Below, piece after piece: positions 6,748 through 12,238 of a DNA stretch of 26,680 nucleotides. Position 1 is the first letter of the stretch. The number at the start of each line of letters is the position of its first letter. Under the pieces are notes generated by a model. It worked only from the letters and a program-made list of their open reading frames with translations. It searched no databases and was not told the origin of the DNA. The position numbers were made by a program, and so were the translations under genes. The stretch is from an uncultured Eubacteriales bacterium (GTDB lineage: Bacteria; Bacillota; Clostridia; Christensenellales; UBA1242): positions 1 through 26,680 of the forward strand of contig CADBPU010000005.1 in NCBI GenBank assembly GCA_902796635.1, given 5' to 3'.

Positions 6748-9700
6748 TTACTTATTGTTATTTTTAATCAAATCAAATGATGTTTCAAAAACATCACACA
6801 AAATTTCTAACTTTTTTTTGACTGAATATTCGCTTAACATAAAATTCATTATTGCACCAGTTGGAGAATAATAAACTTCGATTCCAAGATTTTTTAATGT
6901 TTGACTTATAGTTTTATTCAACATGCTTTCCTTGTCATAAAACTCTGCTTGGCAACGTTCTCTATCAATAGAAATCCTTTTCACATCAAACTCTCTGGCA
7001 ACATTTCTAAGCAATGCAACGCTTGATAAATTATTAATTTCATCTGGAACTTTGCCATATAAATTTTCAATTTCCAAAAGCACTTTTTCTCTTTTTTGTT
7101 TGCAATCAATTTGTTTAAGATTGTTGTATATTCTAAATCTATTTTCACTGCCATCAATATAGTTTTCTGGAATATAACAATTTGTGGCAACATCAAGTTT
7201 GATATCCTTGTATTGCTTTTGTTTTTGGCCTTGGATTTCGCCAACGGCTTCTTTCAAAATTTTACAATACATATCATAGCCCACTTTTGCCATATGTCCA
7301 CTTTGTTCTGCCCCCAAAATATTACCACAACCACGGATTTCCAAATCTTTCATGGCAATTTTGAAGCCACTGACAAGTTCTGTAAATTCCATAATTGCGT
7401 TAAGGCGTTTGTAAGCATCTTCTGTGAGTGCCTTGTCTCTTTTGTATAGAAAATAAGCATATCCCAAATTTTTACTACGACCAACTCTACCTTTAAGTTG
7501 ATATAATTGAGAAAGTCCCAAATTGTCTGCATCAACAACAATAAGAGTGTTTGCACTTGGCAAATCAATACCATTTTCTATAAGTGTTGTGCTAATGAGC
7601 ACCTTTGTTTTGCCCTTATACAAATCCATGATTTGATTTTCTAGTTCGGTTGTTTCCATTTGACCGTGTGCAACACCTATTGCAATATCATTGCCGAGCA
7701 AAGTTCTTATATGATGTGCAAATTCATATATATGTTCCACCCTATTAAACACAATCAACACTTGCCCATCTCTGCCAAGTTCTCGATTAATTGCACTTAA
7801 AATCATTGTATCATTATACTCTGCCACATAGGTTTGAACAGACAAACGCCCCTTTGGTGCAGTTGCAATCACACTTATATCTCTAATTCCAACAAGTCCC
7901 ATATGAAGTGTTCTTGGAATTGGTGTCGCACTCAATGTCAAAACATCTATATTTGACTTTAATCTTTTGATTTTTTCTTTATCTCCAACTCCAAATCTCT
8001 GCTCTTCATCAAGTATTAAAAGACCCAAATCCTTAAAGACAACATCACTGGATAATAACCTATGGGTGCCACAAATAATGTCAATTTGACCCTTTTTTAA
8101 TCTTTCAATAATTTGTTTTTGCTCGGCTTTTGTTCTAAATCTATTCAAACACTCGACAGTTATTCCAAAATTTTCTAATCTTGCCTTGGCTGTGTTGTAA
8201 TGCTGTTCTGCAAGAATTGTTGTTGGCGCTAAAAAGCAAGTTTGTTTGTTGTTGTGAGCAGCAACAAATGCAGCACGCAGTGCAACTTCTGTTTTTCCAT
8301 AGCCCACATCACCACAAACAATTCTATCCATAATTTTTCCACTTTTCATGTCAGTCAAAATATCACTTATTGCACTTGTTTGGTCGTCAGTTTCTTCATA
8401 AGGAAAAGTGTTTTCAAATTCTCTTAATAACTTTTTATCAACTTCGTATTTATAGCCCTTTGCTTCTTCACGCTCTCTATATAACTGCACCAAATCAAAT
8501 GCAAGTTCTTTCAAGTTCTTTTTTACTTTTGCTTTTGTATTTTCAAAATCTCGTGAGCCCAATTTATTTAATTTTGGTGCTTTGCCAGTTGAGACGTATG
8601 CAGAAATAAGCCCAATTTGTTCAGTTGGCAGATACAATTTGTCGCCACCATCATATTTCAAAACGATGTAATCTTTTTCATAATTTGAAAATTTTAATCT
8701 TTGCACTCCTTCGCAAAGTGCAATTCCAAAACTTTCATGCACAACATAATCGCCTGCCTTTGGCAAAGTAAACTCTTCTTTTTTGACACTTTCAACCACT
8801 TTTTTCTGTACTTTCTTTTTTTGCAATTCGTTTGCGCCAATAACAACAAATTTATCTTCAACAAAAATTGCTCCATAAGGAATATTTTGTTTTGAAATAT
8901 AAATAATGTCATAATTTATATTTGTTGATTGCTCGTCATAGAATTCCACAGCCAAATTTTTACTTTTCAAAAAGTTTGATATATAATTTGCAAGTTCTTG
9001 TGTCCCTGCAAAAATAATAACTTTGTTTTCATATTCCAAATAATACTTCAAATCTTCTGCAAGCAAATCGAAATTGCCATGATAATTTGTTTCTGCACTT
9101 GTCTTGAAACTTAAAACTTTTTGTGGCTCAAAAATTCTGTTGCTTGTTGTTATTTGTTGAAAAGAAAGTTTTGTGTTTTTTATATCAAAAACTTTGTCAA
9201 AATGTATATAAAAATCTTTCAAAGAACAAAGCACTTCACCACTTTCTTGCAATGAATTAGAAATGCTTTCAAATTGCTCAAAATCTTGCTTGATTTTATC
9301 ATAAATATACTTGACATCATCAAAAACCACAATGGCATCATCATTCAAATAGTCAATAATAGAAACGCCTTGTAAATAAGCCATTAACCAATTTTGTATA
9401 TAAGAAAAATTTTCAGCTTCAAAATTAACTTTGAATTCTTCAAAATTTGTTTTTAATTTTATTTGTTTATTAGCATCAAGTTGTTTCAAAGATTTTTCAA
9501 AATCTTTTGTTATCTTTTCCAATAATTGAGACTTTGTATCAAAATCGAAACTTATCATAAAATTTGGTACTATATCAAAACTTTTGATTTCTTTTGTCTT
9601 CTTAAAAGTATCGAAATTAAAATGATAAATACTCTCAATAACATTATCAAAAAATTCGACTTTTATTGGATTTTGAGAAATATAATCATATATTGAAATT

Positions 9701-10212
9701 GTATCACCTTTGACACTAAATTCGCCCTTAAAAGATAATAAATCAACCCTTTTATATCCAATTTTAATTAAACTTTTAATGAATGTATTTTGGTCTATTT
9801 TTTGATTTGCTTTTACTGAAAGAATTGATTTTTGATACTCACTTTTTGGAGAAAATTTTTGCATTAAAACAGTAGGAGAAAGTATCAAACAATCAAGTTT
9901 GTTTTTTGAAAGTGAATATAACGTTTCAATATCATTTATCGTGTTATCACTTAGTGTTTGTTGATTAAGTGAAAAATTATTGATATCTGTGCCAAGCATT
10001 ATTTTTGATTTTTTACCAAAGCTTTGCATCTCAGCATCAAGTTTTATTGCATTTGAAATATTGCCTGTTATATATACAATTTGTCTTTTTTGAGAACACA
10101 AAAAAAGTGCCTTTTCACCAAAAGAAAGGCCAAAAACACTAGTGCTTATATTATCACTCATTGCGTTTTGCAAGTCTTTCAAATTGTTATTGAAAATTGG
10201 CAACTCTTTCAT
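6748..10212 (-). CDS. mfd: Transcription-repair coupling factor
   Basis: 1154 aa. UvrB-like N-terminus, RID (GDYVVHE..G), CGDVGYGKTEVA Walker A, DEEQRFG, SATPIPRTL, QLKGRVGR, DLEIRG.GNILG.EQSG. Confidence 0.98.
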   Translation of the reverse strand: MKELPIFNNNLKDLQNAMSDNISTSVFGLSFGEKALFLCSQKRQIVYITGNISNAIKLDAEMQSFGKKSKIMLGTDINNFSLNQQTLSDNTINDIETLYSLSKNKLDCLILSPTVLMQKFSPKSEYQKSILSVKANQKIDQNTFIKSLIKIGYKRVDLLSFKGEFSVKGDTISIYDYISQNPIKVEFFDNVIESIYHFNFDTFKKTKEIKSFDIVPNFMISFDFDTKSQLLEKITKDFEKSLKQLDANKQIKLKTNFEEFKVNFEAENFSYIQNWLMAYLQGVSIIDYLNDDAIVVFDDVKYIYDKIKQDFEQFESISNSLQESGEVLCSLKDFYIHFDKVFDIKNTKLSFQQITTSNRIFEPQKVLSFKTSAETNYHGNFDLLAEDLKYYLEYENKVIIFAGTQELANYISNFLKSKNLAVEFYDEQSTNINYDIIYISKQNIPYGAIFVEDKFVVIGANELQKKKVQKKVVESVKKEEFTLPKAGDYVVHESFGIALCEGVQRLKFSNYEKDYIVLKYDGGDKLYLPTEQIGLISAYVSTGKAPKLNKLGSRDFENTKAKVKKNLKELAFDLVQLYREREEAKGYKYEVDKKLLREFENTFPYEETDDQTSAISDILTDMKSGKIMDRIVCGDVGYGKTEVALRAAFVAAHNNKQTCFLAPTTILAEQHYNTAKARLENFGITVECLNRFRTKAEQKQIIERLKKGQIDIICGTHRLLSSDVVFKDLGLLILDEEQRFGVGDKEKIKRLKSNIDVLTLSATPIPRTLHMGLVGIRDISVIATAPKGRLSVQTYVAEYNDTMILSAINRELGRDGQVLIVFNRVEHIYEFAHHIRTLLGNDIAIGVAHGQMETTELENQIMDLYKGKTKVLISTTLIENGIDLPSANTLIVVDADNLGLSQLYQLKGRVGRSKNLGYAYFLYKRDKALTEDAYKRLNAIMEFTELVSGFKIAMKDLEIRGCGNILGAEQSGHMAKVGYDMYCKILKEAVGEIQGQKQKQYKDIKLDVATNCYIPENYIDGSENRFRIYNNLKQIDCKQKREKVLLEIENLYGKVPDEINNLSSVALLRNVAREFDVKRISIDRERCQAEFYDKESMLNKTISQTLKNLGIEVYYSPTGAIMNFMLSEYSVKKKLEILCDVFETSFDLIKNNNK

Positions 10213-10232: not shown

Positions 10233-10754
10233 TTAGTCTTTTATAAAACTCTCTATTTTCTTGACTGCTTCTTCAACTGAATTTTCAAAAACTTCCAAAT
10301 AATTTTTTGGTATTTTTCCAACGACATAATCAGCCAGATTGTATATCTTTTCTTCTGGCTTTATTCCAATACGTAGTCTTGGAATCTCTGTTGTGCCAGT
10401 CAATGCAACAATATTTCTCATGCCATTGTGTGTGCCTGCACTGCCATTTTGTCTCAATCTAATTGTTCCAAAAGGCAAATCTATATCGTCATATATTATT
10501 AACGTCTTTTCTGGTTTATAAAAATTTATAAGTTCTACTACTGCTTCGCCACTCAAATTCATATATGTCTGTGGTTTTGCGAGCACAACGCTTTTATTCA
10601 AAATATTGCCAGCGTATATCAAAGACTTGCCAAATTTTTTGCTTATTTCAATGCCATTTTCGTCTGCAAATCTATCTATGGTAATAAAACCGGCATTGTG
10701 ATTTGTGCCAGCATATTCCATGCCATAATTTCCTAGTCCAACAATCAAAATCAT
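10233..10754 (-). CDS. pth: Peptidyl-tRNA hydrolase
   Basis: LIVGLGN, HNAGF, KPQTYMNLSG, YDDIDL, G.AGTHNG and RLRIGI motifs. Upstream of mfd. Confidence 0.96.
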   Translation of the reverse strand: MILIVGLGNYGMEYAGTNHNAGFITIDRFADENGIEISKKFGKSLIYAGNILNKSVVLAKPQTYMNLSGEAVVELINFYKPEKTLIIYDDIDLPFGTIRLRQNGSAGTHNGMRNIVALTGTTEIPRLRIGIKPEEKIYNLADYVVGKIPKNYLEVFENSVEEAVKKIESFIKD

Positions 10755-10766
10755 ATCAACTCCAAA

Positions 10767-11666
10767 TTACTCTGCTTTGTAAGATACAAAACTTTTAAGT
10801 TTGTTTTCTGGTTTTATTACAACACCATCAACAATACAATGAGATGGCAAAACAACTCCATCACAAATTTTTGCATTGTTTTTGATTTGGCAAAAACTTT
10901 CAATAACTGCATTGTTACCAACAAATGAGTTTACTATTTCACTGTTTGTTATTGATGCACCATGCAAAATCACACTATCAGTAATTATATTATTTGAATT
11001 GATGATAACATCGTTTTCAATAACACTATGACCTTTTATTTGATTAAATGGCTTAATCACAGTGCCTTCGCCAATTTGACAATCTGCATCAATAAAAGTT
11101 GAAGTTGGGTCTTCAATAAAAACACCATTTTTCATAAAGTATGACAAAATTCTGTTGCGTAAAACTTCATTAACCATTGCAGTTTGCTTAAAGTTTAAGC
11201 ACGTCATAAAGTCTTCTTCTTCAAAATACTGCATTTGTGGGTTGAGTAAACTTTCAATTTGCATCAAATATTTTGTTTCAAAAACATAACCACGTGTAAG
11301 TTTAAGCACACTCAAACTTTTGATTTTGAAGTATTCCATGATTTGCAGAAAGTTTTTTCTTTGAAATAGTGGCGTATCACTAAAAAGCACCAAAGTGTAT
11401 TTGCAGTTTGTGTCCACAACTCTTTTAACAACAGGCAAAAAGTCATCGCCAAAGTTATATTCAGCATAGCAAATTTTTGTGTCATACACAGCATTTGCAA
11501 CCCATTCAAGCATAGTTTTTCCACAGAGTTTTATTTCAAAAGGATTAACATTTCCAAATGCTTTGTTTTTTACTTTCAAAATCACAGTGCAAACATCGTC
11601 ATTATTTTCAAGTTCTCTAAAATTTTGCACCATATCTTTTGTGCTTATTCCTTCCAATATTTCCAT
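10767..11666 (-). CDS. Truncated, degenerate GlmU-like protein (nucleotidyltransferase-fold remnant plus short left-handed beta-helix)
   Basis: CGKTMLEWV, LFSDTPL, GYVF and the GlmU-type linker LRNRI..FMKNGV.I.DP.STFID followed by hexapeptide repeats. Occupies the glmU position upstream of pth-mfd. Catalytic motifs are missing (see findings). Confidence 0.8.
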   Translation of the reverse strand: MEILEGISTKDMVQNFRELENNDDVCTVILKVKNKAFGNVNPFEIKLCGKTMLEWVANAVYDTKICYAEYNFGDDFLPVVKRVVDTNCKYTLVLFSDTPLFQRKNFLQIMEYFKIKSLSVLKLTRGYVFETKYLMQIESLLNPQMQYFEEEDFMTCLNFKQTAMVNEVLRNRILSYFMKNGVFIEDPTSTFIDADCQIGEGTVIKPFNQIKGHSVIENDVIINSNNIITDSVILHGASITNSEIVNSFVGNNAVIESFCQIKNNAKICDGVVLPSHCIVDGVVIKPENKLKSFVSYKAE

Positions 11667-11672
11667 GAATAT

Positions 11673-11701
11673 ATAATATATATAAATAAAAAAAAAGTCA
11701 A
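11673..11701 (-). promoter_or_regulatory. Sigma-A promoter of the glmU-like/pth/mfd operon
   Basis: TTGACT (11701-11696), 17 nt, TATTAT (11678-11673). ATG is 6 nt downstream. Confidence 0.7.
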
Positions 11702-11752: not shown

Positions 11753-12238
11753 TTAAAAGAGTTTTTTATTTTTTCTTTTCAAAGCAAAAAAATTTTGTAG
11801 TAATTTTCTGCAATCGCTTTCAAGCACACCAACAATGACATTTGTTTTTGTATTAAGAGATTGATTATTTAACAAATCAACACCACTTCCACATGCACCA
11901 AAGTTTGGCTCAGCAACACCAATCACAACATTTTTTATTCTGTGATTGACTATCGCCCCAGCACACATGGCACATGGTTCCATAGTCACATACAAGGTGT
12001 AGCCATTATCAAGTCGCCAATCTCCAAGTTTTTTGCAAGCACTTGCAATAGAGACAATTTCTGCGTGATATACTGAGCAATGCAGTTTTTCTTTTTTGTT
12101 ATATCCACGCCCCACAACTTTGCCATCTTTCACAATCACACAACCAACCGGCACTTCATCATTTTTACGTGCTTTTTGTGCTTCTTTTATTGCAAGTTTC
12201 ATAAATTTTTCATGTTCAAAATTACTTTCTTTTTCCAT
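11753..12238 (-). CDS. tadA: tRNA adenosine(34) deaminase
   Basis: M.LA..EA..A....EVPVG, HAEI, LYVTMEPCAMCAGA zinc motif and C..LL..FF end. Confidence 0.93.
   Translation of the reverse strand: MEKESNFEHEKFMKLAIKEAQKARKNDEVPVGCVIVKDGKVVGRGYNKKEKLHCSVYHAEIVSIASACKKLGDWRLDNGYTLYVTMEPCAMCAGAIVNHRIKNVVIGVAEPNFGACGSGVDLLNNQSLNTKTNVIVGVLESDCRKLLQNFFALKRKNKKLF

Follow-up and report, generated by a model that had tools for sequence, protein, structure and literature searches.

The Locus

The window analyzed here, i.e., the whole stretch of 26,680 nucleotides (nt) from contig CADBPU010000005.1 of an uncultured Eubacteriales bacterium, contains an open reading frame (ORF) of 299 amino acids (aa), P0001, in the slot that is occupied by glmU in other families of the same order. 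Judging from its sequence, we consider it probable (at roughly 80%) that this gene encodes a non-catalytic pseudo-enzyme derived from the bifunctional enzyme GlmU, and we refer to it below as the relic. The host genome (G000) is a bin of 869 kb in 120 contigs, 86% complete and with a G+C content of about 30%, from a bovine gut metagenome; the bins related to it are labeled as Christensenellales, Clostridiales, or Clostridia bacterium.

An initial annotation of this DNA had reported an intact 299-aa ORF at 10767-11666. It does exist, on the minus strand, and stop codons occur throughout the plus-strand reading. The genes around it on the minus strand lie in the order pheS, pheT, an HI0933-like flavoprotein, tadA, the relic, pth, and mfd, with a gap of 86 nt between tadA and the start of the relic (Table 1). 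No Shine-Dalgarno sequence was found before the ATG of the relic (positions 11667-11701), unlike pth, which has a GGAG in the 12 nt (10755-10766) that follow the relic stop codon. The start codon is supported by the conservation of an ME.L start among orthologs.

The initial annotation had also placed the relic at the head of the operon, with a sigma-A promoter of its own. The letters of such a promoter are present, but matches of the TTGACT-17-TATTAT type were no commoner than in shuffled sequence (9 found, against 12.0 ± 3.2 expected from shuffles). Since no terminator was found between tadA and the relic, the claim that the latter heads the operon was likewise unsupported. A general run search, with no search aimed at RNA, listed no RNA run holding the locus.

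Table 1. Features of the relic and its surroundings, in coordinates of the window
Feature	Position	Strand	Evidence
GlmU-derived ORF P0001, 299 aa (stop codon counted in)	10767..11666	-	ORF, family profiles, AlphaFold2 model, structure matches
aa 1-21, N-terminal extension with no GlmU counterpart; ME.L start kept in orthologs	11604..11666	-	pLDDT <50, alignment
aa 22-158, reduced and remodeled nucleotidyltransferase-like domain	11193..11603	-	Alignment, conservation; dN/dS ~0.10, most conserved part
aa 159-179, long helical arm in common with GlmU; Q161 and R172 kept in both	11130..11192	-	DSSP helix, alignments
aa 180-299, left-handed beta-helix of 6-7 coils, corresponding to GlmU ~250-365	10770..11129	-	Pfam, NCBIfam, model, alignment
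Promoter-like TTGACT-17-TATTAT, 6 nt before the ATG	11673..11701	-	Consensus match alone, at chance frequency
tadA, conserved upstream neighbor	11753..12238	-	Profile matches, synteny
pth, conserved downstream neighbor (12-nt gap, GGAG)	10233..10754	-	Profile matches, synteny
mfd	6748..10212	-	Profile matches, synteny

Kinship with GlmU

Profile searches placed the relic near GlmU, at scores well below those of the enzyme itself. The NCBIfam GlmU profile PRK14354 aligned residues ~150-290 of the relic with residues ~217-357 of GlmU, with a score of 102.5 bits (cut-off, 450), and TIGR01173 gave 72.8 bits, against the 366.85 demanded of a GlmU equivalog. Pfam recognized only the hexapeptide repeats (Hexapep, PF00132; 43 bits, gathering threshold 27).

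A model of the relic was built with AlphaFold2 from 96 homologs. Its mean predicted local distance difference test (pLDDT) score was 92.1 and its predicted template modeling (pTM) score 0.83; disorder was confined to residues 1-21, and beta-strands were spaced every 17-18 residues from 209 to 297. When the model was compared with the PDB using Foldseek, the top 34 matches were all GlmU, with template modeling (TM) scores by query of up to 0.81. GMPPA/GMPPB, VTC1-KJC2, and ST0452 ranked after these, and the truncated E. coli enzyme GlmU-Tr331 (1FWY/1FXJ) was among the matches. The AlphaFold cluster database contained two uncharacterized fold clusters with the truncated shape of the relic. The kinship with GlmU that had been read from the letters of the window thus stood up to hidden Markov model, AlphaFold, and Foldseek analysis, and the best hits were GlmU.

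Catalytic Sites in the Relic and Its Family

Four full-length GlmUs, all from other families of the order, were aligned with the relic, and a profile-to-PDB alignment gave the same picture. Retained, in the order in which they occur in GlmU, were GK.M.EWV, DTPL, the long helical arm, and NGV.I.DP.STFID, followed by 6-7 coils of the beta-helix. By contrast, the nucleotide loop (LAAGEGTRM in GlmU) reads LKVKNKAF, with no GxGTR, and the position of the catalytic Lys25 is occupied by Phe or Tyr. An in-frame deletion of about 27 aa has taken out the uridine contacts Q..GTGHA; a second, of about 65 aa, has taken out the sugar lobe, i.e., GYGRI, E.KD (EEKDA), and the EIN strand; and EYYLTD has become RGYVFET. 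Of the two metal ligands, Asp105 of DxPL is kept and invariant (D97 in the relic), whereas the position of Asn227 (GVN) is Leu or Tyr, within YFEEEDF.T.L. Both the loss of the nucleotide loop and the in-frame deletion of the sugar-binding segments had been proposed in the initial annotation. With neither nucleotide loop nor catalytic Lys, and with the uridine-binding segment and sugar lobe deleted, the relic should be unable to transfer uridine monophosphate (UMP).

At the other end of the protein, the C terminus KLKSFVSY aligns with TKVSHLTY of GlmU, so that the catalytic His is replaced by Phe and a stop follows. The chain therefore ends at the His motif, rather than before it as had been supposed, and since it stops at the position of the catalytic His, which is Phe, acetylation would not be possible either. 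By its catalytic motifs the relic is thus outside GlmU, and by its fold and genomic position inside. The head contains invariant motifs specific to the relic, i.e., DTPL (97-100), RGYxF (125-129), and YFEEEDF (147-153).

The same losses extend across a family. A word-indexed search returned 178 homologs at E ≤0.001, most of them of about 300 aa, and a few carry the source name "bifunctional GlmU" (JGI names). Among 121 sequences, i.e., the query and the 120 listed of the 178 homologs, the P-loop was absent throughout; the same remodeled head is combined with a retained His motif in 14 (357-427 aa), and the other 107 have neither motif. The head by itself (aa 22-165), used as query in an exhaustive phmmer search, gave 192 clusters at 50% identity, half of which (96) were found at E ≤1e-10. 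The P-loop was again absent from all of the 150 representatives listed of these 192 clusters, and the His motif was missing as well in 136 (median 280 aa) and kept in 14. This family-wide loss of the catalytic motifs (the P-loop in 0/121 and 0/150) bears out a non-catalytic reading.

Selection on the Relic

Two close strains (93% and 89% identical to the relic in amino acids) were compared with it at the DNA level, using Nei-Gojobori estimates. Over its whole length the ratio of nonsynonymous to synonymous substitution (dN/dS) was 0.13-0.15, at an unsaturated dS of 0.27-0.78. The values for flanking genes were 0.11 (pth), 0.10-0.16 (tadA), 0.115 (mfd), and 0.17-0.23 (the HI0933-like gene). Within the relic, the head (aa 1-150) was the most constrained part, with a ratio of about 0.10, and the beta-helix (aa 185-299) gave 0.19-0.28. 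The relic is therefore under purifying selection and is not decaying; its dN/dS is far from 1 and like that of the flanking housekeeping genes, as the initial proposal of a repurposed protein, rather than a decaying pseudogene, had implied. A protein under such selection does something.

Conservation was concentrated in the same part of the protein. In an alignment of 96 homologs, 33-93% identical to the query, 12 columns were invariant (D97, P99, L100, R125, G126, F129, F148, D152, F153, Q161, R172, and G181), and all of these lie in the head and arm, between 97 and 181. In the beta-helix the only near-invariant positions were I198, G212, and S247, with no conserved His or other polar residue.

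The glmU Slot in Related Genomes

Loci were extracted from 28 related genomes and their neighbors labeled by BLAST. The family to which the host belongs (f1) consists of genomes of 0.6-1.3 Mb, of which 24 were searched. In four outgroup families (represented by G028, G026, G030, and G037), a GlmU of 454-462 aa lies directly upstream of pth, with mfd after pth in three of the four and tadA upstream in G028. The slot is filled in G036 and G038 by a protein of 348-400 aa, in which a short dead head is joined to a complete acetyltransferase. In f1 it is occupied by a relic of 253-302 aa in 17 of the 24 genomes, including a very divergent one of 266 aa in G015. Overall, the relic is carried by 21/24 related genomes, its frame being intact in 20 or more genomes from different genera, and in two (G014 and G007) it adjoins a gene for an acetyltransferase of 181-195 aa. 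The relic is found in the tadA-X-pth-mfd slot in most genera of the family, and the orthologs collected beside pth show that it is not specific to one strain.

In G023 the slot (L030:4597-5697) holds a 366-aa version with a full beta-helix and C-terminal arm, in which KSGFIADS stands instead of SHLTYVGD; this resembles an intermediate stage, with inactivation preceding truncation. In G019 (98% complete) the strand of pth carries no ORF upstream of it, and in G016 (93% complete) an unrelated ORF of 385 aa lies upstream of pth.

Supply of UDP-GlcNAc: The Acetyltransferase Step

The initial annotation had asked how this organism makes uridine diphosphate N-acetylglucosamine (UDP-GlcNAc). The gene murA was found in G000 and in every one of the 24 family genomes searched, and its presence implies that a cell wall is made. 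In G000 it lies on another contig (G000:C1:1006-2250; 500.9 bits, above the cut-off), an observation that bears on an earlier note that murA was missing at the ywmB-spoIIQ locus. The glmS gene and the 3' half of glmM were recovered from G000 as well. No GlmU above the curated cut-off was found in the family genomes searched.

Many family genomes have instead a separate ORF of 176-216 aa that matches residues ~250-449 of GlmU at 180-240 bits, with an intact SHLAYVGD. This stand-alone acetyltransferase, of 176-196 aa in sister genomes, was found in four of the six genomes of the host's genus. In G005, G012, G013, and G021, as well as in G034, from another family, its gene immediately precedes glmM. 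In two genomes the acetyltransferase half and GlmM share one 658-aa frame (G009:C3:6094-8013 and G020:C2:21460-23337), which, from its sequence, looks like a natural fusion of consecutive steps of the pathway.

In G000 itself, glmM is cut by the end of contig C101: it starts at base 3, which corresponds to position 243 of GlmM (L067, G000:C101, 1-602). Because the contigs begin inside glmM, the place where the acetyltransferase would be expected is unassembled in G000, and we infer that the gene is present there. Same-species contigs from three other assemblies (L068, L069, and L070) also start inside glmM, within about 100 nt; this shared break suggests that a repeat, an insertion, or a segment that varies between strains lies immediately upstream. 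Two metagenome pattern scans of the gap upstream of G000 glmM found nothing, and when the gene downstream of glmM was looked up by identity, the only contigs returned were from three other assemblies, all of them starting inside glmM.

A different arrangement was seen in G024, which has, besides the relic, adjacent genes (L027, G024:C32, 2089-3820) for a 301-aa N-terminal half of GlmU (211 bits; the ORF as called starts after the position of the P-loop) and a 201-aa acetyltransferase half. This pair looks like a second, split GlmU, possibly of foreign origin.

Supply of UDP-GlcNAc: Candidate Uridyltransferases

Three members of the host's genus (G003, G005, and G006) have a divergent nucleotidyltransferase of about 310 aa (LILAGGAGSRFGGPKQ), whose nearest relatives are of Bacteroidota type. 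In these three genomes (L035:2299-3231, L034:3245-4186, and L036:2651-3583) it is the only recognizable sugar-1-phosphate nucleotidyltransferase. Its nearest clusters in the Atlas are of Bacteroidota type too, some of them fused to an APH-like kinase, and it may correspond to the monofunctional GlcNAc-1-phosphate uridyltransferase of Capnocytophaga. It occurs in 6/24 family genomes in total, and with so patchy a distribution we rejected it as a family-wide replacement.

Other genera of the family have GalU-like enzymes of about 290 aa, and G018 has a UAP1/NagU-like protein (PF01704, 128 bits), which suggests a eukaryote-like or salvage route to UDP-GlcNAc. The latter, a UDPGP-family protein in a 403-aa frame, lies at G018:C5:133048-134124, in a genome that is 100% complete and has no glmS, glmM, or acetyltransferase. 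PF01704 was absent from G000, G003, G005, G010, and G014; these are weak negatives, the control genomes containing no member. GlmR/YvcK, considered as an accessory uridyltransferase, was not found in the five family genomes searched. One sister bin, G004 (78% complete), has an archaeal-type sugar-1-phosphate nucleotidyltransferase gene (TIGR03992, 278 bits) at positions 3-686 of a 2.5-kb contig (L026, G004:C91), which could be a real transfer or contamination of the bin.

The question of how UDP-GlcNAc is made was therefore answered in part: in sister genomes the acetyltransferase half exists as a separate gene, and other nucleotidyltransferases are present; in G000 neither the stand-alone acetyltransferase nor the 310-aa nucleotidyltransferase was found by tblastn and family searches, and no nucleotidyltransferase was detected. 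According to a recent report (bioRxiv 10.64898/2026.06.23.733835), many bacteria lack GlmU in whole or in part and rely on other uridyltransferases, and Capnocytophaga has a monofunctional uridyltransferase (PMC4358021). The mosaic of uridyltransferases in f1 fits both reports.

Discussion

We propose that a glmU ortholog became a pseudo-enzyme in place, keeping a small globular head, the long helical arm, and the left-handed beta-helix. The most likely assembly would be a trimer bearing three small heads, since the arm and beta-helix, the parts that build the GlmU trimer, are retained. Its role would most probably be non-catalytic, in binding, scaffolding, or regulation, as in other dead relatives of sugar-nucleotide enzymes; a trimer scaffold, a ligand sensor, and a regulatory subunit had been put forward as candidate roles in the initial annotation. 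The synthesis of UDP-GlcNAc would have been redistributed at the same time, with the acetyltransferase (the C-terminal half of GlmU) encoded beside glmM or fused to GlmM, and the uridyltransferase step taken over, genome by genome, by unrelated enzymes of the 310-aa, GalU-like, or UAP1/NagU-like types.

Several points weigh against this proposal. Any oligomeric state, ligand, or partner proposed for the relic is putative. The invariant residues specific to the relic are for the most part aromatic, Gly, or Pro (F129, F148, F153, G126, and P99), and these may serve only to re-seal the core after the deletions, without forming a site. G019 and G016 seem to be without the relic, which would make it dispensable in some backgrounds. 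Finally, in G000 neither an acetyltransferase nor a sugar-1-phosphate nucleotidyltransferase was found, in a genome that is 86% complete, so that a residual catalytic role is conceivable.

What the pseudo-enzyme does can be proposed more tentatively. By alignment to GlmU, D97, R125, and the acidic run E150-D152 are at the position of the old cleft, and they could form a new site. It is possible, although we would not rate it higher than that, that the relic is a new trimeric regulator or sensor found in many small-genome Clostridia of the Christensenellales type, whose head (DTPL/RGYxF/YFEEEDF) binds a metabolite or a protein and which controls a process that has outlasted de novo hexosamine synthesis; this might be, for instance, MurA's consumption of UDP-GlcNAc, or a connection of envelope synthesis with the functions of pth-mfd.

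The leading specific sub-hypothesis, which we nevertheless regard as doubtful, is that the relic is a non-catalytic partner of the stand-alone acetyltransferase, forming a split GlmU in mixed trimers or a stacked complex. The beta-helix of the relic would pack with the short one of the acetyltransferase and so stabilize or regulate the acetylation of glucosamine-1-phosphate. The adjacency of the two genes in G014 and G007 is consistent with this, as are the presence of both in at least ten family genomes and the fusion of the dead head to an active acetyltransferase in 14 of the 121 homologs and 14 of the 150 representatives. Non-catalytic paralogs of this fold class also act via contacts of their beta-helices, and GMPPA/GMPPB and VTC1-KJC2 are among the fold matches. 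However, G017 (97% complete) and G018 have the relic with no detectable acetyltransferase, glmM, or glmS, and G023, with its full-length, doubly dead version, has neither glmM nor glmS. There is also an overlap of 3-4 homologous coils between the relic and the acetyltransferase, which are thus not complementary halves. These three genomes and the overlap argue that the relic is not simply the partner of the acetyltransferase, which, for its part, also occurs without a relic (in G019).

That the relic is still an enzyme, either a rebuilt uridyltransferase or a hexapeptide acyltransferase with a new substrate, seems improbable. The invariance of the Mg-binding Asp of DxPL, the conservation of E150, E151, and D152 near the old cleft, and the failure to detect another nucleotidyltransferase in G000 would all be in keeping with it. 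On the other side, none of the approximately 270 sequences examined has a GxGTR loop, Lys25, a uridine-binding segment, or a sugar lobe, the beta-helix offers no conserved His or other polar residue, and complete relatives do have other nucleotidyltransferases, G000 being incomplete. Least credible of all is a neutral or decaying remnant, its frame kept open only for transcription or translational coupling into pth-mfd: the relic abuts or overlaps pth in several genomes, sits in an operon of essential genes, and has been lost in G019, but its dN/dS is low throughout, above all in the head, which is the part remote from the junction with pth, its invariant residues persist across proteins only 33-40% identical, and its frame is intact in the genomes of different genera counted above.

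Among antibiotic targets, GlmU is regarded as universal, essential, and bifunctional. If the relic is the pseudo-enzyme that we propose, it provides a clean natural case in which the glmU gene stays in place, both activities are lost, the protein is still preserved, and the pathway is rebuilt from a separate acetyltransferase, sometimes fused to GlmM, and non-homologous uridyltransferases. It would support and extend the recent claim that alternative routes to UDP-GlcNAc are common, and, at about 300 aa and with a confident model, the protein would be a convenient pseudo-enzyme to work on. Naming such relics "bifunctional GlmU" in automatic annotation would be a mistake, one that would distort metabolic models of these gut organisms. 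No description of the relic was found in the literature searched.

With bifunctional GlmU (TIGR01173/PRK14354; PDB 1HV9, 1G97, and 9DQF) the relic shares its slot upstream of pth-mfd, its fold and domain order, and GK.M..WV, DxPL, the residues of the arm, and NGV..DP..T.ID. It differs in being some 155 residues shorter, in having no P-loop, Lys25, Q76/G81 segment, or sugar lobe, and in the replacement of Asn227.

GlmU-Tr331 is an engineered fragment (residues 1-331) of the E. coli enzyme (PMC4358021, citing Pompeo et al.). It has almost the extent of the relic, i.e., the head, the arm, and the first coils, with no acetyltransferase site. It is, however, a laboratory-made and active uridyltransferase, whereas the relic is natural and has a shrunken, probably dead head. 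GlmU-Tr331 is reportedly trimeric.

Truncated or split forms of GlmU have been described in bacteria with NagU (bioRxiv 10.64898/2026.06.23.733835), as has the monofunctional GlmUCc of the Bacteroidetes (PMC4358021): in those lineages, as in f1, the two activities are uncoupled and another uridyltransferase takes over. In those reports, however, the fragments are treated as active half-enzymes, and a conserved, doubly dead fragment is not described in them.

Other precedents for a dead enzyme are GlgD, GalF, GMPPA, plant KONJAC, and eIF2B gamma/epsilon, all of which are derived from nucleotidyltransferases (most with a beta-helix), have lost catalytic residues, and are maintained by selection in regulatory or scaffolding roles. 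Both loss of catalytic residues and purifying selection were found in the relic. The GlgD/GalF/GMPPA-type paralogs, however, have a full-size head that often binds ligand, and a known catalytic partner. In the relic the head is about 90 residues smaller, and the protein is the ortholog rather than an extra paralog. It co-occurs with a stand-alone acetyltransferase in at least ten genomes and is also kept where there is none, in G017 and G018; unlike these paralogs, it persists even where the obvious partner is missing.

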